Source: Escherichia coli (GTDB taxonomy: Bacteria; Pseudomonadota; Gammaproteobacteria; Enterobacterales; Enterobacteriaceae). From it: DNA of 64,000 nt. The notes under the pieces were generated by a model. The model worked only from the letters and a program-made list of their open reading frames with translations, was not told where the DNA came from and did not search any database. Each line of letters begins with the position of its first letter. The first letter of the stretch is position 1. Where the stretch lies: assembly GCF_003018235.1 (NCBI RefSeq), contig NZ_CP027437.1; one strand, given 5' to 3'. Below, piece after piece: positions 2,318 through 38,452 of this stretch. The position numbers and the translations under genes were made by a program.

Positions 2318-2518
2318 TTAATTTGATTTATTTGCATCCATTAGCGCTTTTAACTGCTCCGGCGTAAACGGTGGTTTGCGTCGGTGCAACATCGCATGGC
2401 AATTAGGGCACACAGGAAGCAAATCATTAACTGGATCCAGCTGGTAATCCTCTTTAATGGCTGAAAGCGGCACCAGGTGATGCACATTAAGCAATTTCAG
2501 AACCGCATGCTCATACAT
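2318..2518 (-). pseudogene. Short HNH-endonuclease-like ORF (66 aa), probably a truncated remnant
   Basis: Translation carries HH..P....N....CPNCH..H spacing typical of HNH nuclease cores but is far shorter than standalone HNH enzymes. Confidence 0.35.
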
Positions 2519-2577
2519 ATTTCCCCCTAAGTTTGCTCACTGCCTTTAATTTATGTCACAGGCAATGTAATTCACCT

Positions 2578-2649
2578 GAAGCTCATCTTGAATCTGTCCT
2601 TCTACTTAGTCATTACCCTACTGGCACAACCGACCTCAAGATGAGCTTC
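2578..2649. repeat. 14-bp perfect inverted repeat (gaagctcatcttga / tcaagatgagcttc) with 44-bp spacer
   Basis: Read directly from sequence, arms at 2578-2591 and 2636-2649; lies just 3-prime of the minus-strand gene ending at 2656. Confidence 0.6.
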
Positions 2650-2655
2650 TTACTT

Positions 2656-3264
2656 TTAACGATGTATCAGAACAATCTTGCGCCGGGAGAATAGCGTTTC
2701 CGCAGACAGCTGGAATTTATATTCCGCGGCCTTCAGCTTTCGCGATTTAAGCATTTTCATCGTGATACCCCTTATTTTCCCTGACTCAACCTGTCTCTTG
2801 ATTTCGCCGGTGCTCAGCATGAGCTGCTTTTGCAAAATCGACAGCAGGCTGACCTGAAACGAACGGGAAATCCTGACGCTAACCTTGACCCATTTGCCGG
2901 GAGAAAGGCTGGCTAACCACTGCTCCTGAATGCGAAAATCAGGCCGACCCGATAGCTCTGCGTTGTTCCGCTTCAGCATCGCGATATCACAGGAAAAATG
3001 TTGAACCGTGGCTGCATCGTTGCTCATCAGCCGGTTATGAAGTTCGCGGTCAATTTTGCTGACGTGCAGGCGCGAAAATAGGGAGATATTCCAGGTGTAA
3101 TCACAGTGTGTGCATTTATAGATACTCCACACGTCCAGCACCTTCTTTTGCGAATTAATCCGAAATGCACCTGATGGCGTGAAGTCCCGTTTAATGTTGC
3201 ATGAAGGGCATCGCTTCGCAATGCGCTGATACCCCACGGGCGTGACGGTCCATGTAACTTTCAT
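2656..3264 (-). CDS. Hypothetical protein with N-terminal CxxC...CxxC zinc ribbon and basic C-terminal region (202 aa)
   Basis: Long ORF with two CxxC pairs (CPSC, CTHC) and a K/R-rich C-terminus; no confident family assignment. Confidence 0.5.
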   Translation of the reverse strand: MKVTWTVTPVGYQRIAKRCPSCNIKRDFTPSGAFRINSQKKVLDVWSIYKCTHCDYTWNISLFSRLHVSKIDRELHNRLMSNDAATVQHFSCDIAMLKRNNAELSGRPDFRIQEQWLASLSPGKWVKVSVRISRSFQVSLLSILQKQLMLSTGEIKRQVESGKIRGITMKMLKSRKLKAAEYKFQLSAETLFSRRKIVLIHR

Positions 3265-3559
3265 AACCTACCTTTTTTAACCCATACAAAACCGGATCCG
3301 TACTGAACGGACCATGGATGTTTATGTATGAAAAATATTTAAGAGATATTTTTCAGAGGGTTAAAAAAAGATTTCCAACTATGCAATCCTGTCGGTGAGC
3401 AAAGAGATATAGCGAGACTATCAAAACGGCAATTATTGGGTATATGAGTTCAATCAATATTCATGATGGTTATGGCTTGTTCTATTGATCTGACACATTA
3501 AACACGGCGCATTAATTTTGTATGTTTTATGAACAACCCAACAACAAAAGGAGCGCGAT

Positions 3560-3811
3560 ATGACACAGCACGAACGGTTTTGTCAGGCCTGCGGAATGCC
3601 GATGTCCGCACCTGATGCGCAGGGGAGTAGCGATAAATACTGTGCATACTGCAGCGATAGCAACGGCAATCTTAAACCCTGGGAAGAGGCGGTATCAGGC
3701 TTGGCCAGCTTCCTTGATTCCTGGCAAAAAGTCGGTCCAGAAGAAGCACAGAAGCGTGCAAAACGTTATCTGACGGCAATGCCTGCCTGGGCTCATAAAG
3801 CGGACGAGTGA
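3560..3811 (+). CDS. Small zinc-ribbon domain protein (83 aa)
   Basis: CQAC...CAYC motif; strong SD aaaggag 8 nt upstream of ATG. Confidence 0.5.
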   Translation: MTQHERFCQACGMPMSAPDAQGSSDKYCAYCSDSNGNLKPWEEAVSGLASFLDSWQKVGPEEAQKRAKRYLTAMPAWAHKADE

Positions 3812-3875
3812 ATAACAAAGTCAGGGTGATTTAGGCAGTCTATCTTCACTCCGCTGATTCCATTAAGGAGAGCCG

Positions 3876-4268
3876 ATGTTTTCTCACATTATGCTTGGAA
3901 CCAACAACCTGCCACGCGCCATTGCATTCTACGATCCGTTGATGGATATGCTGGGGTATCCCCGCGGCGGCAGGAAGAGGAGATCGCATGGTGGGGCGTT
4001 TTCAACGGTAATAACACTACGGCACTGGGTATCAGTAGGCCATTTGATAAACAGGTTGCCACGACCCGAAATGGAGTGATGGTCGCCCTGATTGCGCGTT
4101 CTGCCGAACACATCCAGCAAGTTTCATGTGCTAGCTTTAAATCACGGTGGCACTGACGAGGGAGCACCTGGCCAGCGTCCGCATTACGGCGAAGGGTTCT
4201 ACAGCGCTTACGTCAGAGACACCGATGGCAACAAGCTGGCTTACGTTTATTACACCGCACAATCCTGA
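3876..4268 (+). pseudogene. VOC/glyoxalase-family gene disrupted by frameshifts
   Basis: N-terminus MFSHIMLGTNNLPRAIAFYDPLMDMLGY in frame 1 (SD aaggaga upstream); the rest of a VOC-like protein (ALGISRPFDKQVATTRNGVMVAL... and GGTDEGAPGQRPHYGEGFYSAYVRDTDGNKLAYVYY) continues in the other two frames, implying at least two frameshifts. Confidence 0.5.
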
Positions 4269-4512
4269 GAACGATAAAGCGGGGGCCTCAGCGCCCCCAC
4301 CTGAAACTAAACCGATCCCGCAGATGTCAATGAGCGTTGAACGAGTTGATAAATGCCGAGATGTCTGACTGTTTTTACGCCAGAACTCCATGGTGTGACA
4401 ACCATACACATACTCCCTTCTTGACACCTTTAAACCATTTAACCGCATGCCTCTGTCTGCCCTGCAGGGACGGCTGATGCCTGTGTGTTGTCTGGCGGTA
4501 AGGAACAATACT

Positions 4513-4674
4513 ATGTACGCAAAATCCTTTATCGCTCTCGACGGGAATGGTCGTCTGACCGGTGCCCGTACTGCGCAGACCGCCCCTTACGATCGTTATA
4601 CCTGCCACCTCTGCGGTAGCGTGCTGCAATACCATCCTGAATACATCACCGAACGCCCGTGCTTTGAACAGTAA
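4513..4674 (+). CDS. Small hypothetical ORF (53 aa, MYAKSFIALDGNGRL...)
   Basis: ATG preceded by aagga-like SD; contains CHLCGS motif; function unknown, could be a remnant. Confidence 0.25.
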   Translation: MYAKSFIALDGNGRLTGARTAQTAPYDRYTCHLCGSVLQYHPEYITERPCFEQ

Positions 4675-5266
4675 CCAACACACTGACAGAGGGCGGCGAA
4701 AATGCTTTATGCAAATCTTGATGCAAAGGCAGCCAGACGAATTCGTAAGTTACGCTTTTACGTGGCAGATACTCAAAGCAGACTGGCATTGTAGCGACGA
4801 TTGCCACGGTGAACGCTATTGTATGGCATGTAGTACCTGAGACTTCAGCCGCCCAGTAGATATAGCATCATGAAAAAACTGAAATGCTTTCTTGCCAACA
4901 ACTCACTGAGCTAGTATGCCTCCACCGATGTAACAATTAGAGCAAGCGTCAAAGTGCGAAACTGCCCTCACGTAGCTGCAAGTTAACACCAGGAAATCCT
5001 GGTTCAAACACGACCAGCTCTATGTTAGCGGCAAGCAATCGTTGAACTAAACGCATATGCAGCCGGAGATGAAAGTTAGGAAAAAAGCAGAGGCTGATAA
5101 GAATTATGCACGTTGAGCTGGGATCGTAATACCCCACTTAAAATGTACAAGGGGAGTAGTCTAATGATGTTAAATACGAACCTTCAGTATTGTTCATTCA
5201 CCAATTTTCCCATATTCTCTCATCATTAATATTCTCTGCCGAATTTTATAGGGCTAACTCGCTGAA

Positions 5267-5470
5267 ATGAATGACAAAGCTTTAACCTTGAAAGATGTGG
5301 TGGCTTACTTAAAGTTGGCAGAAAAAACAGCGTATAGGTTGACTAGCGAAGGCAAATTGCCGGGATTTAAGGTTGAAGGCTCATGACGCTTCAAACGAGA
5401 GGATTTAGATATGTGGATTGAAGGTCAGAAGACTCAAAGCTACCCGAGTATCACAAAATCCAATCGTGGT
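5267..5470 (+). pseudogene. Excisionase/AlpA-like HTH DNA-binding protein interrupted by in-frame TGA
   Basis: Translation MNDKALTLKDVVAYLKLAEKTAYRLTSEGKLPGFKVEGS*RFKREDLDMWIEGQ; the stop at 5384-5386 sits where this family has the conserved Trp of the GSWRF motif. Confidence 0.5.
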
Positions 5471-5708: not shown

Positions 5709-8246
5709 ATGATAAATGACCATGAAGAACTAGAACTTGCTAAAGCTCAGGCAAAAGAAATATGGAAGATCCTTGATTATGTTCGAGGAGCATCACCTAT
5801 ATCTAATTATCGCTCATTAGCGTATTCAATCTTCTTCGTACGCTATCTTCAATCCAATACAGGTCAGCATTTTGAGGCAGAAAGGTTCGACTCTTTTAAT
5901 GTCATCGCCCAGTATTCCTACGATCTTGTAAACTATGCCGTTCAACTTGGATTGATTCATAGCGACGTATCTAAATTCTTAATTTATTATTTAGAAAACA
6001 CACTCCGTTCATTTGTCAATATTGATGAGTCTTTTGTTCGTTATGCAATTAGAGATGGTCTACTCAATAAAACCCCTGCAATAGCGTCGCTTTCTTTATC
6101 AGAACTGGATTTACTTTTTGCCGAGAATGAAGGTAAGTCAGGAGGTGAGTTTTATACCCCTAGAGACGTCAACTTATTGGTTAAAATATTAGGATTGAGT
6201 TATCAACCAAAGTCAATATGTGACCCATTTGCAGGTGCTGGAAACACAGCATTTCCTTTTGCCAATACTGGTATTGAAAAAGTTAGGATTGATACTCAAG
6301 AAATTAATAGAGATGCTTACTTTAAACTAGTAATAAGTAGAGTCATCAGGAAAATAGAAGGTCGAGACTATTTCGGCGATTCCCTATCACAACCATTATA
6401 TCAAGAAAATAAATATGATCTGATAGTTTCTTTCCCACCTTTTGGCATGAAAATTCCTAAAGCCACTCGAAATAATATTTACTATAAAACAAGTAATAAG
6501 TGGCTGGATATTACTGAAATCTTGCCAGAAAGTAGAAGTGATTGGTTTATAACATTATCAATGCTTCCAGCCCTTTCTGAGGGGGGTAAGATACTAGTAG
6601 GTATGTCACTTGGGGCTTTGACAAGAGCAGGCTCTGAGGCAAAGGTTCGTGAGTATTTAGTCTCTCGCGGAATTATCGAACAAGTAATTCTTTTACCTAA
6701 AAATATTTATTACTCTACGGCTATCTCAACTGTACTTCTTGTCCTCAACTCAGGAACAAGTAACATAAATAACAGAAGTATTAAATTTGTAGATGCTTCA
6801 CTGTTTTACGAGCCTGCCCGTGGTCGAAACACCCTCACAACAAAAAATATAAATGAGATCGTAGAGGCTTGTCATAAAGATGGCCGATTTAGTATTAGTT
6901 CATCTCATACCCAAATAGCAAACAGAGACTTTAATTTAGATCCGTCTCTTTATGTACGTAAAGATCTCAAAATCAGTGAGGTTTCTTTAAAAAATTTTAG
7001 AGGATACTCTGACTTTAAAGTTTCGATACATCCTTCTTTAAATGTATTGGTTGGTGAGAACGGCGTCGGGAAAACTTCGATATTAGAAGCATTAGCATGT
7101 GGCCTTGGTCCTTTCCTTACTGCTATGCCTGATGCTAAAGGAAAACTGATAAAAAAATCAGATATCCATATAAGTTCAAAAGGAATCGCAAATTATGCTC
7201 GAATATCGATTGAAACAACATCAAGTTTAAGTTGGGATCTTGTGGCAAAGGGGGTTGATGTTTCCGAGCCCCCTAAGATAGGAACATCAGCATTAACTAG
7301 CTACGCTACTCATCTTGTAGATAGTCAGTCTGAATATCCACTCATTGCTTATTATGGGACTAACCGTGCTCTTACTTCTACCAGTTCTAAAGTTGCAATA
7401 AATCCATTCGAGAAAGAAAATCGTGGGGAAGGTTATGACTTTGCTTTAGATGCTAAAGTTAACTACGGCATCTTAAAGAACTGGTTTTCAAAAATAGAGG
7501 TTGATGAGCTTCGAAAACGTGATGAACTAAAAGACCATAAATTCATTCATCCGGCTAAGAGACTTGTTTCAGAGGCTGTTTACCAGATTGTTGATCGAGC
7601 TACATGCTTGGAGTTCGACAAAAATAGTAACGATGTTATGGTTCATTGGAAAAATGAGCAGGGAGAGTGCGTAAAGCTTACATTGGAACAACTAAGTGAA
7701 GGGTATAGAAATATGGTATCCCTGACCATTGACCTAGTGAGGCGTGCTTATTTACTTAATCCTACCAAACCGAAACCGCTAACAGTTAATGGGATCGTTT
7801 TAATTGATGAAATTGAACTTCACTTGCACCCTAGATGGCAGCAAAAGATTTTAAATGATCTTACTAAGCTGTTTAAGAATATTCAGTTTATTGTCACGAC
7901 ACATAGTCCTCAAGTCTTAACAACAATCAAAGCCGATTGTATCCGTATTGTTTCCGTCAATGCTAACGAAGCAAAATTAGTGACAGGAACTACTACTTAC
8001 GGTTCTGAAAGCTCAAGAATGTTGGAAGATGTTTTAGGTGGTAACAATCGCGCCCAACATCTTGATATTGTTAAAAAACTAAACCGTTATACAGAGTTAG
8101 TAGAGGCCGACAAATGGGATACCGATGAGGCATTAGAACTCAAAAAAGAGTTATATAAATGGGGTGGTCAGACAGAAGACGAGCTTCAAAAATTAGAAAC
8201 TGATATTCGAATTCGCGAGTTCGAGCGTGGCAATGAAAAAGATTAA
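5709..8246 (+). CDS. Fusion protein: N-terminal gamma-class N6-adenine methyltransferase-like domain plus C-terminal ABC-type ATPase (Septu PtuA-like)
   Basis: MTase-like motifs in order X-I-IV: EFYTPRDV (about aa 147), DPFAGAGN (about aa 172), SFPPFG (about aa 240). ATPase motifs: Walker A GENGVGKTS (about aa 449), Walker B VLIDEIELHLHP (about aa 695), TTHSP (about aa 730). AT-rich coding sequence. Confidence 0.75.
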   Translation: MINDHEELELAKAQAKEIWKILDYVRGASPISNYRSLAYSIFFVRYLQSNTGQHFEAERFDSFNVIAQYSYDLVNYAVQLGLIHSDVSKFLIYYLENTLRSFVNIDESFVRYAIRDGLLNKTPAIASLSLSELDLLFAENEGKSGGEFYTPRDVNLLVKILGLSYQPKSICDPFAGAGNTAFPFANTGIEKVRIDTQEINRDAYFKLVISRVIRKIEGRDYFGDSLSQPLYQENKYDLIVSFPPFGMKIPKATRNNIYYKTSNKWLDITEILPESRSDWFITLSMLPALSEGGKILVGMSLGALTRAGSEAKVREYLVSRGIIEQVILLPKNIYYSTAISTVLLVLNSGTSNINNRSIKFVDASLFYEPARGRNTLTTKNINEIVEACHKDGRFSISSSHTQIANRDFNLDPSLYVRKDLKISEVSLKNFRGYSDFKVSIHPSLNVLVGENGVGKTSILEALACGLGPFLTAMPDAKGKLIKKSDIHISSKGIANYARISIETTSSLSWDLVAKGVDVSEPPKIGTSALTSYATHLVDSQSEYPLIAYYGTNRALTSTSSKVAINPFEKENRGEGYDFALDAKVNYGILKNWFSKIEVDELRKRDELKDHKFIHPAKRLVSEAVYQIVDRATCLEFDKNSNDVMVHWKNEQGECVKLTLEQLSEGYRNMVSLTIDLVRRAYLLNPTKPKPLTVNGIVLIDEIELHLHPRWQQKILNDLTKLFKNIQFIVTTHSPQVLTTIKADCIRIVSVNANEAKLVTGTTTYGSESSRMLEDVLGGNNRAQHLDIVKKLNRYTELVEADKWDTDEALELKKELYKWGGQTEDELQKLETDIRIREFERGNEKD

Positions 8247-9021
8247 TAAGCTAGATGAGCCAAATCGGCTTGGTGTGTTCAAGGCTACTCATCCTAATGC
8301 TTTGTGGGAGAGGGATAAAAACTCAATTGAAGAGGCTTTCCGTTGTTGCATTGCCAGATATCAAGAAACTCTACAACAATTACGTACGGACCAAGGTAAT
8401 TTATGTGCATATTGTGAACAGGATTTAATGTCTGGAACTAATGGGGCATTAGATGACTGCCGTATTGAGCATTTTCATCCGAAATCTAAACGTGAACAGG
8501 GAGAACCTAATTGGGCTTTGGAATGGAGCAATTTGTTAGTTGTTTGCTGTGGCGGAAATCAAAGTAAAGTTGTTAATCCTGGGCAAAGATTTGATGCTGA
8601 TCCCAAAAATTACTCTTGCGATGTACCAAAGAGTGACAAAATTTTAGATACCATTATATTAAATCCACTTAATTTACCTGAATTAAATATCTGGAAGTTT
8701 CATCGTTCTTCGGGGCAAATTTCCGTAAATGAAGATTCCTGTTTAGAATTTGGTATAAGTGTTGAAATGGCACACCAAACAATTAAAGAATTGAATTTAA
8801 ATTCCCCTCGATTAATTAGATTTCGAAAGGCTATTCTAAATAATCTCAACATTTTAATAACAGAAAGGCTGAAGAAGGGACAAACGGTAGAGCAAGCTGT
8901 TAGATTTATTGCCATATCACTCTTTAGAAAAAATGGAGCAGGTGATTGGCCCTCTTTTTTTAGTGCAACACGATATTATTTAGGTCAGCAGGCTGAGCTT
9001 GTTTTAGCCCAACCTATTTAA
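8227..9021 (+). CDS. HNH nuclease (Septu PtuB-like)
   Basis: Motif CAYCEQD...DDCRIEHFHPKS...WSNLLVVCCGGN; start (GTG 8227 or ATG 8233) overlaps the stop of the upstream ATPase gene, indicating an operon. Confidence 0.7.
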   Translation: MAMKKINKLDEPNRLGVFKATHPNALWERDKNSIEEAFRCCIARYQETLQQLRTDQGNLCAYCEQDLMSGTNGALDDCRIEHFHPKSKREQGEPNWALEWSNLLVVCCGGNQSKVVNPGQRFDADPKNYSCDVPKSDKILDTIILNPLNLPELNIWKFHRSSGQISVNEDSCLEFGISVEMAHQTIKELNLNSPRLIRFRKAILNNLNILITERLKKGQTVEQAVRFIAISLFRKNGAGDWPSFFSATRYYLGQQAELVLAQPI

Positions 9022-9040: not shown

Positions 9041-9063
9041 AGAGGCTGCTTTTGGCAGCCTCT
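9041..9063. terminator. Hairpin between convergent operons (agaggctgcttttggcagcctct)
   Basis: Perfect stem agaggctgc/gcagcctct with T-rich loop, located between the stop at 9021 (+) and the stop at 9082 (-). Confidence 0.4.
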
Positions 9064-9081: not shown

Positions 9082-10515
9082 CTACAGGGGCGATGCTAGC
9101 TCAGAGAACCAAGCGTGAACTGATCTGTAAAATGTGCTGATTGACCAAAACTCACTGCATGCAGCAACTAACAGAATGACCACTAAGAGGATCACTACAG
9201 TAGAAGTCATTCTTTCCACACGGCAGTATGATCCCATCGCATCTTTTACAGGTTGTCTAGCCAGTTCCTGATAATCCAGCTCATCCAGAAATCCGTATAA
9301 TTTAGTTCTCCAGGTGGTTCTAACTCTTTCAAGTAATGAAATTGTTTGCCTATTAATATAGACAGACATTCCATAGGAAATAACTATATAAACCGCGATA
9401 GCACAAAAAACCAAAGCGTAAATATTTTGCAAACCAACTGATTTTACTGCATCCAGACTGTAGCGAATAACCAAGACACTAATTACAAGAGCCATATCTT
9501 TCCATAAGGAAGAGGACAAATCTCGGGATTGCTGAATGATCTTTTGTGTATCTTCAGCCAGCGTTTTCCGCAAATCACCCAAGGATTTCATAGTATCTTT
9601 ACCACCAGTCCTGATATGGGCCTTATACATTAACCGTGCAGACTCCAAAGCTGATGAGAGTCGAAGCATCACTCCCTCACAAAAGTTCAGGTCTGAAGGC
9701 CACTCTCTAGCCAGCTCGCTGGACAAAAACGTATGTTTCAGCTCAGTTTCATTCCCCTCTAGAAAAATCCACTTTGCCGCTTCCTGGATAATATCAAAAG
9801 CAGGTAACGCTGCCGTCTCATCGCCGAATGCTATTTTTCTGGGAGGCTTTCCCGCAAGCCCCACCATCATTTCGTCAGCAAAAAAAAGTTCATTTGCAAA
9901 ACATTTCAGCAACTCTCGGCATCCTAGCAATTTCCATATCTTGATTGCTTCATCAGTCTTCTCACTACAAGTTTCAAGTATCCAAGGGGCAATGGCATCT
10001 GGAGGAAGAAAAGTTGTTGAATAACATTTGATGATACTTTTTGTTACTGAAGGCTTAGTGATAGCTGTTGCATCACCAGCACTCACCGGCTGTATCTCCT
10101 TCCATGGATGCACATACCAACTTATTGTCTGAAAGCCTTCAGTAATAAACAGCCCATAAATATGTTTGTACCGACAGAGTTTGCTATCTTGAAGTAAAAA
10201 AGTGCGCCATCCTTCTAAGGTAAAAAGCCTCAGTATCCCCGGAATTTCATTATAAGTGATGGTAATGTAGTGCTTCTGCCCTGGGACCCCCTCTCTCGGA
10301 TGAATAACATCTCTGCTCTCATCGATAAAAACGATCTTGAGATCTTCCGCATGTACATCCACTATTTCTCCCCATAAATCAAGGGATTCACTATCCATTG
10401 TGGCGGAAATAAAAAGCTTATGGATAGACACCTGCTGGTCCTCTGTGATCACAAGGTCAGATAAATGTCGTGAGTGGCATATAGCCTTACCGATTTTTTC
10501 CAATATCGATATCAT
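9082..10515 (-). CDS. Hypothetical protein with C-terminal transmembrane helices (477 aa)
   Basis: Long ORF; C-terminal hydrophobic segments (IYALVFCAIAVYIVISYGMSVYI and STVVILLVVILLVAACSEFWSI); 29-nt overlap with the upstream gene; no recognisable catalytic motif. Confidence 0.55.
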   Translation of the reverse strand: MISILEKIGKAICHSRHLSDLVITEDQQVSIHKLFISATMDSESLDLWGEIVDVHAEDLKIVFIDESRDVIHPREGVPGQKHYITITYNEIPGILRLFTLEGWRTFLLQDSKLCRYKHIYGLFITEGFQTISWYVHPWKEIQPVSAGDATAITKPSVTKSIIKCYSTTFLPPDAIAPWILETCSEKTDEAIKIWKLLGCRELLKCFANELFFADEMMVGLAGKPPRKIAFGDETAALPAFDIIQEAAKWIFLEGNETELKHTFLSSELAREWPSDLNFCEGVMLRLSSALESARLMYKAHIRTGGKDTMKSLGDLRKTLAEDTQKIIQQSRDLSSSLWKDMALVISVLVIRYSLDAVKSVGLQNIYALVFCAIAVYIVISYGMSVYINRQTISLLERVRTTWRTKLYGFLDELDYQELARQPVKDAMGSYCRVERMTSTVVILLVVILLVAACSEFWSISTFYRSVHAWFSELASPL

Positions 10516-11548
10516 CTGTTACCAATCCTGCAGTCACAATTACAATTCGTTTTCGCCCGTCTTCCATATTTTCTACTTCTGGTGCATTGTCTTCATCGTA
10601 GATAATGATTACATCTTCCAATGTTTCCAGTTTTCTCTTCCGGGGCTTCTGAATGTTATCGGGAATGATGCGGAAAGATTCACCTGAAATTCCTAAATCC
10701 TTTATTTTACGAAAAAAATACTTAACCAGAGGGTGTTCTTCCTCCAAAGGACCAAAAATCTGGGTCAACAATGGCAGTGCTTCATCAGTATTAAAATCCT
10801 GTTCGCCATGGCGTAAAGTTTCATAAATTTTGTTTACTCCGCTGCGCTTGATCTCTTCAGGTAGTAAGTTTCGATGCTTTTTATATACATCTTTTAATAC
10901 AGTAACTAGCTTATCGCTGAGCTGAGTTGGGTCATTGACGCGCTTAACCTGTAGAAATCGTTCAAAATAGACAGAGATGTTAGTACGTTTGCTGCGATCT
11001 CGTACGACAACTAATCCGCCCGGCAAATCTTCATTCAGCCGTACCAGTGCGATTTTCTGCATGGCTTCGGCTTTTTTAACGAAACTTTCGCGAAAGCGTT
11101 CGAGTTTAGGTACCTGAAACTCATCTCCTTCAACATCCAGCACATAACGGACTACATCTTCATTGTCATACTTAATCAACGCATACAGTTTCTCATCGTT
11201 GAGTGTATGAAGTTCAAAAAGGAAAAAAACGCCCATACTGGCATTCTTGGTATGGTGGTGAGACTGAAAATCGCTTGCCAATAAGGAGGATTGCTCAGTA
11301 AAGCAGCCGATATCGGTGTCTGCATGTTCCCTGATGATCCTCAGGATTCGCTCTGTATTTGACAACTCCTTAAAATGAAACATATTGCCACTAACTGCAG
11401 ATTTGATACGTTCCAGAAAGAAATCAACATGCTCCGGAGGGGAAATTTCGCTGAGTAAAACAGGGACTTCCAACTCACCGCCAACCACATGAAAAATCAT
11501 CCTTTTTATTGATAATGCATTGATTTCTTCATCCGTTAAAAAACTCAT
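10487..11548 (-). CDS. Hypothetical protein (353 aa), weak resemblance to NdpA/YejK-type nucleoid-associated proteins
   Basis: Long ORF first in a two-gene operon; size and scattered sequence patterns recall YejK, but this is an unverified impression. Confidence 0.5.
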   Translation of the reverse strand: MSFLTDEEINALSIKRMIFHVVGGELEVPVLLSEISPPEHVDFFLERIKSAVSGNMFHFKELSNTERILRIIREHADTDIGCFTEQSSLLASDFQSHHHTKNASMGVFFLFELHTLNDEKLYALIKYDNEDVVRYVLDVEGDEFQVPKLERFRESFVKKAEAMQKIALVRLNEDLPGGLVVVRDRSKRTNISVYFERFLQVKRVNDPTQLSDKLVTVLKDVYKKHRNLLPEEIKRSGVNKIYETLRHGEQDFNTDEALPLLTQIFGPLEEEHPLVKYFFRKIKDLGISGESFRIIPDNIQKPRKRKLETLEDVIIIYDEDNAPEVENMEDGRKRIVIVTAGLVTDDIDIGKNR

Positions 11549-11744
11549 TTTTATTTCTCAATATAGTGTTTATATTTACTACCGTGAGCCATCTTACCTA
11601 AGCGTAGAACGTGGCGGAAAACACGATAACATTATTGCATAGCTTACGGCGTAACTTATCCTCGCCCCAGACAGAATAAACGTCAAAATAAAATAATGAA
11701 AATATGATCGAGACAGCATTAGCTGCCCCGCTTTCTTAGACTTT

Positions 11745-12998
11745 TTACATTATTAGGGCAAAATCAAACGGACTCACCCCCTTCTCCCGATTCGCATCCA
11801 GATAATTTGCCCACCACTGCAGCATCAACCTACGCTCCCCAAGATGTTCCGCCTTATGGATGTATGCCGCCCGCACAGAGCTACGCTCCTGATGGCTCAT
11901 CTGCCGCTCCACTGCATTCCTCGACCACAATCCTGATTCAATAAGTGAACTACAGGCCATCGTCCTGAAACCATGCCCACAGACTTCCGTTTTGGTGTCA
12001 TAGCCCATAACTCGCAAAGCCTTGTTCACCGTATTCTCACTCATCGGCTTATGCGGATCGTGATCGCCCACAAAAATCAGCTCTCGATTTCCATTCATGC
12101 TTTTGATCTTTTCCAAAATAGCTAAGGCCTGCCGCGATAAGGGTACAAGATGGGGAGTTCGCATCTTCGAACCACGCTGAGAATGTTTAACACCGTCCAA
12201 CGGTTCACGCTCACCGGGGATCGTCCACATGGCCGTTTCAAAATCCACTTCTGACCAACGGGCAAAGCGCAGTTCGCTTGAACGGATGAAAACTAACAAA
12301 GTGAGTTCGACAGCCAGTCGAGTTAACGGCCTGCCGGAGTAATGATCAATGCGGTGAAGTAATTCAGGTATGCGGTTAAGCTCCAGAGCCGCACGATGCT
12401 GTCTTTTAGCAGTAGCAACCGCACCGGTAATCTCTTGCGCGGGGTTGTAGTCGATTAAGCCGCTCTGAACGGCAAAGCGCATAATCGCGGTAGTTCGCTG
12501 CTGTAAACGGGCGGCGACTTCAAGACGTCCGGATGACTCCACCGCTTTAATGGGTACAAGAAGATCCCGAGTCTTAAGCTCTGCAATGTTCCGCTTACCG
12601 ATAGCAGCAAAGAGATTATCTTCTAGGCTTTTCAATACACGAGCACTATGCGATGCAGACCACTTCTGATTACTGGCATGCCAGTCTCTGACGACCACTT
12701 CAAACGTTATCGCCTCTTGCTCCTGTTCTACCTTAACCGCTTTCTTGTTTTCACTGGGATCGACGCCGTTCGCTAAAAGCTTACGCGCTTCGTCTCGCCG
12801 CGATCGAGCATCAGCTAACGAAACTTCAGGATACTTCCCTAGCGCCAGCATCTTCTCTTTACCACCGAAACGATAACGAAGCCGCCAGTATTTGGAGCCG
12901 TTAGGGTGAACCAGCAAAACCATGCCTTCACCATCAGTAAGTTTATAGGCTTTTGCTTCAGGCTTTGCCGAACGAACCTTCACATCACTCAGAGCCAT
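11745..12998 (-). CDS. P4-type tyrosine integrase (IntB-like), apparently intact
   Basis: Translation MALSDVKVRSAKPEAKAYKLTDGEGMVLLVHPNGSKYWRLRYRFGGKEK... matches P4/CP4-like integrases and ends with a tyrosine-recombinase C-terminus; adjacent to tRNA-Leu 3-prime end. Confidence 0.85.
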   Translation of the reverse strand: MALSDVKVRSAKPEAKAYKLTDGEGMVLLVHPNGSKYWRLRYRFGGKEKMLALGKYPEVSLADARSRRDEARKLLANGVDPSENKKAVKVEQEQEAITFEVVVRDWHASNQKWSASHSARVLKSLEDNLFAAIGKRNIAELKTRDLLVPIKAVESSGRLEVAARLQQRTTAIMRFAVQSGLIDYNPAQEITGAVATAKRQHRAALELNRIPELLHRIDHYSGRPLTRLAVELTLLVFIRSSELRFARWSEVDFETAMWTIPGEREPLDGVKHSQRGSKMRTPHLVPLSRQALAILEKIKSMNGNRELIFVGDHDPHKPMSENTVNKALRVMGYDTKTEVCGHGFRTMACSSLIESGLWSRNAVERQMSHQERSSVRAAYIHKAEHLGERRLMLQWWANYLDANREKGVSPFDFALIM

Positions 12999-13196
12999 GA
13001 TGAATATCCTTTCAAGGGTTCTGTGTGGGTACAAACATTATCGAACCGGGATATACCCGCAGTTGTACCCGCATCAGTAAGTTGATGTAGATTGAATCAG
13101 GTTGACTTAGGTTGAGTGAAAAAGCGAGGAAAGCCTTGCGGATACTGGATTTCAGGCATAAAAAAAGACCTCAGTTGAGGTCTATTTACATACTTA

Positions 13197-13281
13197 TGGT
13201 GCCGAAGGCCGGACTCGAACCGGCACGTATTTCTACGGTTGATTTTGAATCAACTGCGTCTACCGATTTCGCCACTTCGGC
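13197..13281 (-). tRNA. leuX: tRNA-Leu (CAA)
   Basis: Reverse complement reads GCCGAAGTGGCGAAATCGGTAGACGCAGTTGATTCAAAATCAACCGTAGAAATACGTGCCGGTTCGAGTCCGGCCTTCGGCACCA, with cloverleaf features and a long variable arm. Confidence 0.9.
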
Positions 13282-38074: not shown

Positions 38075-38214
38075 AAGGAGTCCCTCCGCACTGTCTGAAA
38101 CAGTACAGAAATGTCTTCAGGCGTGGCGAAGCCTTACCTGAAGGTAATAAAGCTGAGCAGGGACGTTAAAACGTCACGGCCTTACGCATCCGGTAACGCC
38201 GTGAAAAGACGGGC
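38075..38214 (-). promoter_or_regulatory. mgtA leader (Mg2+/proline-responsive region downstream of mgtL)
   Basis: Position between mgtL and mgtA start; assignment from established knowledge of the mgtA leader. Confidence 0.5.
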
Positions 38215-38268
38215 TTACCGGAAAAGTTTTAATCTCCGTCGAGGGAGAGGCGTGGGATCAGGTTCCAT
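38215..38268 (-). CDS. mgtL: mgtA leader peptide
   Basis: 17-aa proline-rich translation [17 protein letters not shown] upstream of mgtA. Confidence 0.8.
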
Positions 38269-38452
38269 ATAACCTCCGGTAAGTGAAAAAAGCGCCGCAA
38301 ATAATAAGGAGAATCCAATAATATTCGTAGCATCTATGGCGATATAATACCTGCTGGCAACTAAACCAACGATAAACCAGACTTTACCCATTGCTGAATG
38401 CACGGGTAAAGTTAGGCTCAAATAATTAAACAACACGTTACGGGACAACAGG

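Follow-up and report, generated by a model that had tools for sequence, protein, structure and literature searches.

PANGU systems are two-gene anti-phage operons organised around a YejK-like nucleoid-associated protein (NAP), and were described in April 2026 (Li et al., bioRxiv 10.64898/2026.04.06.716658). In Type I PANGU the NAP, Pag1A, is paired with Pag1B, a GRel toxSAS, and the two form a 2:1 complex (PDB 9UFP). In Type II, the NAP Pag2A is paired with Pag2B, a protein whose N-terminal domain is acidic and 'DNA-mimicking' (DMK) and whose C-terminal domain is transmembrane (TM). A gene pair with a similar architecture, here termed A and B, occupies positions 9,082 to 11,548 of a 64,000-nucleotide stretch of Escherichia coli DNA (contig NZ_CP027437.1, assembly GCF_003018235.1), the whole of which is called the window. 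Judged by its protein families, architecture and genomic setting, A/B probably defends against phage by abortive infection, as a two-gene system of the PANGU type ('Type II'). An earlier sequence-only reading of the window had proposed a module of the abortive-infection type, which the analysis supports; it had also treated the pair as unmatched to anything known, and that part did not stand, since the Type II PANGU architecture fits.

The Type II system tested in E. coli, PANGU-Ecu, gives 3-4 log protection against T4 or Bas34. Both genes are needed for this, neither is toxic alone, and the phenotype is one of abortive infection. T4 denA (EndoII) mutants escape. Pag2A is bound to the nucleoid in uninfected cells and diffuse after infection, and it binds the DMK domain of Pag2B with a dissociation constant (KD) of 19 nM; how it then activates Pag2B is stated by the authors to be unknown (bioRxiv 10.64898/2026.04.06.716658). 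Another validated two-gene defence unit of E. coli is DS-1 (DefensePredictor ID D390; DeWeirdt et al., Science 2026, PMC13092281), which consists of the NA37 protein WP_000355468.1 and its partner WP_000150292.1 (NZ_RRVY01000002.1, 220602-222994).

The features of the pair in the window are as follows.

10487..11548, minus strand: gene A, 353 aa, ATG start; putative Pag2A-like sensor
9082..10515, minus strand: gene B, 477 aa, ATG start; putative Pag2B-like effector
10487..10529, minus strand: A/B junction; B ATG at 10515-10513, 29 nt inside the end of A; AGGA at 10529-10526

Protein A matches the Pfam family NA37 (PF04245) over residues 20-337 of its 353, with an E value of 1.5e-12 and a score of 48 bits. 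The faint resemblance to NdpA/YejK suspected earlier is thus real, and the RefSeq product name of A is 'nucleoid-associated protein'. No NCBIfam family is matched at E <= 0.01, and because there is no such match at all, A is regarded as a divergent paralogue and not as the housekeeping YejK. With the latter (YejK/NdpA, E. coli's nucleoid-associated protein of 37 kDa) it shares the Pfam family; it differs in the weakness of its NA37 match and the lack of an NCBIfam equivalog, and in being island-borne, rare and always paired with B. Basic residues are well kept in the A family, R47, K126, K165 and R203 being invariant and K159, R185 and K213 at least 90% conserved. A is a divergent NAP of the NA37/YejK family, predicted to bind DNA. 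The DNA-contact residues of Pag1A are K200, R203 and K204 (bioRxiv 10.64898/2026.04.06.716658). Searches of PDB sequences with A and with the A-family profile returned no relative and no NA37 structure, the copy of the PDB used evidently being without 9UFP. A weak, near-full-length match of A to phrog_1974, whose function is not known (E 1.2e-4), indicates that NA37-like proteins occur in a phage protein family too.

Neither A nor B matches an enzyme family in PADLOC, NCBIfam or Pfam, in agreement with the lack of enzyme motifs noted before. At E <= 0.01, both match 0 families of PADLOC v2.0.0 (2023).

The two minus-strand open reading frames (ORFs), of 353 and 477 aa, overlap by 29 nt, exactly as the sequence-only reading had it. 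In the RefSeq/PGAP annotation, B (WP_158709056.1 on NZ_CP028192.1) begins at an internal GTG; it is given 449 aa, 28 residues fewer, and does not overlap A. Residues A11, S15, R16 and E25 of B all lie before that GTG, and in 41 homologues they are invariant or nearly so. Homologous pairs at other loci overlap as well, by 4-38 nt. Because of these conserved residues and the overlaps in homologous pairs, the ATG start and the overlap are judged right. The RefSeq start codon of B is mis-annotated, trimming family-invariant positions and hiding the 29-nt overlap. An AGGA motif resembling a Shine-Dalgarno sequence is found 10 nt 5' of the B ATG, within A, and the two genes are likely translationally coupled.

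Protein B can be divided into a soluble and a membrane part.

9511..10515, minus strand: B residues 1-335, cytoplasmic soluble part; alpha/beta region about residues 1-270 plus stalk about 278-340
9145..9495, minus strand: B residues 341-457, membrane region with TM1-TM3 (from the hydropathy of B and of its aligned family)

By hydropathy, TM2 (364-386) and TM3 (438-457) are strong hydrophobic segments and TM1 (about 341-358) is weaker, a pattern that the family shares. The AlphaFold2 (AF2) model of B has a mean predicted local distance difference test (pLDDT) score of 84.5, with very long helices that run through the hydrophobic segments. Hydropathy and model agree with the earlier description of a second protein that ends in two to three hydrophobic helices after a soluble domain of roughly 330 aa. 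The segment between TM2 and TM3 (387-437) is conserved and is assigned to the cytoplasm; conserved residues of B include W402, R403, K405, L406, Y407, D411, D414 and Y415. Conservation peaks in the stalk (251-340) and in the TM2-TM3 loop (401-425), while TM3 and the tail are variable. The net charge of residues 1-335 is -9, and across the family it averages -9.0 and varies from -4 to -14; acidic patches lie at 51-75 and 251-275. This part of B is a candidate NAP-binding ('DMK'-like) domain.

The family to which B belongs has many members but no entry in Pfam, PADLOC or NCBIfam. No match to B was obtained in these three collections, in PHROGs, or in PDB sequences searched with both the query and the family profile, and Foldseek of the model against the PDB gave nothing at E <= 1e-3. 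Against AFDB50, Foldseek gave 163 significant matches. The best 50 of these 163 match B in length and architecture; they are uncharacterised and come from Alpha-, Beta- and Gammaproteobacteria. The idea that the N-terminal domain of B is a modular NAP-binding domain, found also in other effectors such as toxSAS, has no support among these best 50, which are full-length B-like proteins. A whole-library profile search placed at least 638 representatives (at 50% clustering) in the family, 372 of them at E <= 1e-30. A Pfam scan of 30 distant members gave no family, and the label 'DUF2868' carried by one AFDB match was not borne out across them. The module of long helices and three TM segments resembles ClyA or CorA distantly, as generic helical bundles only.

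The pairing of A with B is strict. Genomic contexts of diverse B homologues were scanned by comparing six-frame translations with hidden Markov models (HMMs) of the A and B families. In 21/21 loci (about 17 of them distinct) the ORF immediately upstream of B, in the same orientation, belongs to the A family; these loci comprise 13 distinct genomic or metagenomic ones and 8 on viral contigs. Their sources extend from E. coli to the Alphaproteobacteria and include metagenomes as well as viral contigs. Conservation of the pair as a unit, which had been named beforehand as a test that could refute the earlier proposal, is thus found throughout. Pairing persists at B identities as low as about 25-30%; the upstream proteins there match the A profile in hhalign with a probability of 100% (E 9e-44 and 2e-62). 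One locus (L010) looked at first like a solitary B without a NAP, but the six-frame HMM search found an A-family ORF cut by the contig end, so the apparent exception is an artefact of gene calling. The B-family member at that locus (2-2429) has 611 aa with a C-terminal extension of about 150 aa, and is directly beside a Dnd cluster (DndB/C/D/E-like); the opposite-strand gene call there (2-502) is probably spurious.

The two families have also diverged together. Pairwise distances of A and B in a mirror-tree comparison correlate with r = 0.89 over 28 same-contig pairs, and A is better conserved than B (mean distance 0.45 vs 0.60). Co-divergence of this degree is compatible with binding between A and B and is no proof of it. 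A NAP of the NA37 family, in the role of a putative sensor, and a membrane partner thus appear as inseparable across Proteobacteria and on prophages.

The genomic contexts are those of mobile and defence-related DNA. Integrase islands carry the pair in the window and at L002-4. In E. coli 13E0767 (L009, 3880-6343) and Serratia fonticola (L014, 7971-10467) it lies in lambdoid/Rac-like prophages beside the Q antiterminator. In these prophage variants, which include L020-L023 from IMG/VR, the pair is present as a moron and B is about 39-48% identical to the B of the window. Known defence genes or toxin-antitoxin (TA) modules are close by in the window (Septu) and at several of the other loci, a proximity that had been put forward as a check on the earlier proposal. 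For example, the pair is found near CBASS plus AbiJ in Bosea (L006), near Mrr-like and YhcG nucleases with an integrase (L011/12), and near CcdAB, TacAT and an IS3 element in Dickeya (L016), in addition to the Dnd neighbour mentioned above. Within E. coli the pair is patchy and rare. DNA identical to the window locus is present in 2/5426 complete genomes, where it lies between the nan genes and leuX/ahr, and the prophage variant in 30/5426. The A protein of the prophage variant, 61% identical to A, is listed by DefensePredictor as a predicted defence gene (PMC13092281).

That the pair is always found on DNA of a mobile or variable kind (in integrase islands, in prophages next to Q, near CcdAB/TacAT), with a tight, overlapping two-gene layout like that of TA operons, would also suit a role in the maintenance of the mobile element or in exclusion. 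The pair would then be a TA-like addiction module, with B as membrane toxin and A as its neutraliser, or would act in superinfection exclusion at the membrane. This is unlikely. In the tested Type II PANGU neither gene is toxic alone and both are required for protection, and typical antitoxins are far smaller than the 353 aa of A. A further point comes from a Methylocaldum-like metagenome contig (L015, 7970-9032), in which A is split in two frames (covering 1-154 and 148-348 of the profile) beside an intact B. Either the split A is a pseudogene that arose by frameshift or the assembly is wrong here; if the frameshift is real, B is tolerated without an intact A, which argues against lethality of B in the absence of A.

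The criteria by which PANGU operons were collected can be set beside the locus. In the preprint, a NAP was a YejK/NdpA (IPR007358 / NA37) homologue with an HMM E value below 1e-10, by the authors' own HMM and not that of Pfam, and a length of at least 300 aa. Its partner was a non-NAP gene at an intergenic distance of less than 40 bp, with a known defence system within 10 kb. The Pfam E value and the length of A are on the required side of both limits, A overlaps a non-NAP partner by 29 nt, Septu ends 61 bp away, and B has the C-terminal TM region of a Type II partner. Type II PANGU and A/B have the same order of genes: the NAP, which is YejK/NA37-like, comes first, and its partner follows, with a C-terminal TM region after a soluble N-terminal domain that is net acidic, mildly so in B. 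The two are alike in being present in E. coli, beside known defence systems, and in having spread across lineages on mobile elements. Because of this agreement with the bioinformatic criteria, the described architecture and the DefensePredictor listing of an A homologue, the PANGU mechanism is considered the best explanation of the pair. With Type I PANGU, A/B shares the sensor family and the presumed logic, in which a NAP freed from degraded DNA would bind the effector; it differs in that the Type I effector is a soluble nucleotide pyrophosphokinase, while B is a membrane protein that lacks a toxSAS domain or any other enzymatic one. Systems of this kind have been described already, in a publication younger than most of the databases, and nothing in A/B contradicts the published framework.

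Several observations weigh against this assignment. The likeness of A/B to Pag2A/Pag2B is one of described architecture and not of sequence alignment. The N-terminal domain of B is an alpha/beta fold with a helical stalk and no PDB relative, whereas the DMK domain of Pag2B has been described only as mimicking a long DNA helix; moreover it is only mildly acidic (net -9 over 335 aa), far from the classic DNA mimics. When A was modelled by AF2 as a fusion with B(1-335) through a 30-residue glycine-serine linker, each half was confident, but the predicted TM-score (pTM) was 0.46 and there was no confident docking; this was with a shallow paired multiple sequence alignment of 21 rows, at 1:1 stoichiometry and with no predicted aligned error. 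DS-1 is an unrelated E. coli pair of a NAP and a protein with a hydrophobic tail, and PANGU-Ecu could belong there. Finally, three of the contexts sampled (L007/8, L015 and L017) have no obvious defence genes nearby.

The last observation bears on a non-defence role as well. A paralogue of nucleoid proteins, held by a partner in the membrane, might anchor or organise chromosomal or island DNA there, or regulate island genes, and NA37/YejK proteins are indeed bona fide nucleoid proteins (bioRxiv 10.64898/2026.04.06.716658). A role of this kind accords poorly with the patchy, horizontally transferred distribution in E. coli (2 and 30 of 5426 genomes), with the presence of the pair on prophages and viral contigs and beside Septu, CBASS, Dnd and Mrr-like systems, and with the prediction of an A homologue as defensive. 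It is the least probable of the alternatives, and very unlikely.

Under the PANGU reading, a mechanism can be outlined. In the uninfected cell the YejK-like A would sit on chromosomal DNA, and B would be idle in the inner membrane with its N-terminal domain of about 335 aa in the cytoplasm. Once the host chromosome is degraded by a phage such as T4, A would be without its DNA substrate and would diffuse into the cytoplasm. There it may bind the cytoplasmic N-terminal domain or the stalk of B, and so activate the C-terminal helical/TM module. Activation would most likely consist in a change of conformation or of oligomeric state by which the membrane is permeabilised or depolarised. Growth of the infected cell would stop before phage progeny are released, and the pair would in this way protect against phage.

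Sensor and effector could also be assigned the other way round. B might sense a perturbation of the membrane or the entry of phage DNA, with A compacting or blocking DNA, or B might hold A at the membrane at rest and free it on infection. The preprint itself first raises sensing by PagB and the licensing of PagA, and states that the activation of Pag2B by Pag2A is unknown (bioRxiv 10.64898/2026.04.06.716658). A is also the more conserved partner (0.45 vs 0.60), and AF2 gave no confident docking of A and B. On the other hand, the tested Type II NAP is bound to the nucleoid before infection and diffuse after it, and escape maps to the phage nuclease gene denA. Reversed logic of this kind is improbable. 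NA37 proteins are not known to have enzymatic or toxic activity, and TM proteins are common as abortive-infection effectors, which also speaks for B as the effector. All three alternatives are less consistent with the published Type II data and the patchy distribution on mobile elements than a PANGU-type system is.

DS-1 was considered as an identity for A/B and rejected. The two have in common an NA37/YejK-domain gene in first place and a second protein with a soluble N-terminal part (net charge -9 in both) and a hydrophobic C-terminus. DS-1A has 391 aa and an N-terminal zinc ribbon, whereas the NA37 match of A starts at residue 20 and A has no Cys-rich extension; DS-1B has about 400 aa and B 477. 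In hhalign, the B-family profile matches DS-1B with a probability of only 0.3%, and BLASTP of DS-1A against A gives no significant alignment. It appears that membrane partners were recruited by NA37 sensors on more than one occasion. It is possible, if rather doubtful, that the B family is an effector class distinct from the tested Pag2B, with its own co-evolving NA37 clade. If so, E. coli would have three independent cases in which a nucleoid-protein sensor is joined to a membrane effector, A/B besides DS-1 and PANGU-Ecu, and the module of long helices and three TM segments would form pores or depolarise the membrane in a new way, gated by the loss of chromosomal DNA.

If the PANGU assignment is right, infection would be detected through destruction of the cell's own chromosome and not by recognition of phage molecules, a principle proposed only in 2026. 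A/B would add a natural E. coli example, located in the classic leuX defence island beside Septu. The most conserved parts of B, the stalk (251-340) and the cytoplasmic segment (401-425), are concrete targets for mutagenesis. Profile models of the A and B families could extend defence-annotation tools.

The pair is flanked by the following features.

5709..9021, plus strand: Septu operon, convergent with A/B; PtuA 5709-8246, PtuB HNH nuclease 8227-9021
9041..9063, no strand assigned: GC-rich hairpin in the gap where the Septu and A/B operons converge; terminator-like, without a T-tract
11549..11744, minus strand: intergenic region 5' of A; terminator-like hairpin 11730-11709, then an AT-rich stretch
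11745..13034, minus strand: P4-type tyrosine integrase of the island (NCBIfam PRK09692, E 2.5e-76; RefSeq annotation)
13197..13281, minus strand: tRNA-Leu(CAA), integration site of the island (ARAGORN; Rfam tRNA)

The convergent operon, which the sequence-only reading had called Septu-like, is matched by PADLOC as PtuA (E 4.7e-106) and PtuB (E 1.9e-100), with NCBIfam matches too; the 61 bp that separate it from A/B are counted from the end of PtuB (9021) to the B stop. The integrase recognised earlier beside the pair is of the PRK09692 type and adjoins the tRNA-Leu(CAA) gene. GC content of the A/B stretch is 0.36-0.44, against about 0.52 in the flanks. The hairpin at 9041-9063 has a 9-bp GC-rich stem with a dG of -19.9 kcal/mol (z -2.85). 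The hairpin noted earlier at this site is thus real; a T-tract is found on neither strand and a consensus terminator scan made no call, so it is best called terminator-like and not a canonical intrinsic terminator. A second terminator-like hairpin, at 11730-11709, stands just past the integrase stop. When the minus strand 5' of A was scanned for promoter consensus sequences, no sigma-70 match came up; the A/B promoter presumably lies in the AT-rich stretch within 11549..11744. No distal att repeat was found in the window, either as a second tRNA 3' end, with as many as 3 mismatches allowed, or among direct repeats of at least 16 nt.

The PtuA protein of this operon has an unusual N-terminus, with a region like a type I N6-adenine DNA methyltransferase (PADLOC MTase_I E 1.2e-30, residues 137-418; hsdM E 2.1e-35). 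The PtuA part begins at about residue 420, and the RefSeq name for the whole 845-aa fusion is 'N-6 DNA methylase'. Septu with a methyltransferase-fused PtuA may be a methylation-coupled variant of the system. The distal side of the leuX island (about 2400-5300 in the window) is degraded, with gene fragments and an IS3-family element, which is ISEc31 by the annotation of the identical RefSeq locus.

A 16-nt direct repeat, TGTGGCGGAAAT[C/A]AAA with one mismatch, occurs in ptuB (8548-8563) and in B (10399-10414) and is probably due to chance. Elsewhere in the window, Rfam gathering scores are exceeded by three RNAs, all on the minus strand: the Ysr276 antisense sRNA at 19296-19490 (185.8 bits), an Mg2+ riboswitch (Magnesium-II) at 38168-38283 (125.8 bits), and naRNA4/CssrE at 55187-55263, which at 61.6 bits is barely over its threshold.

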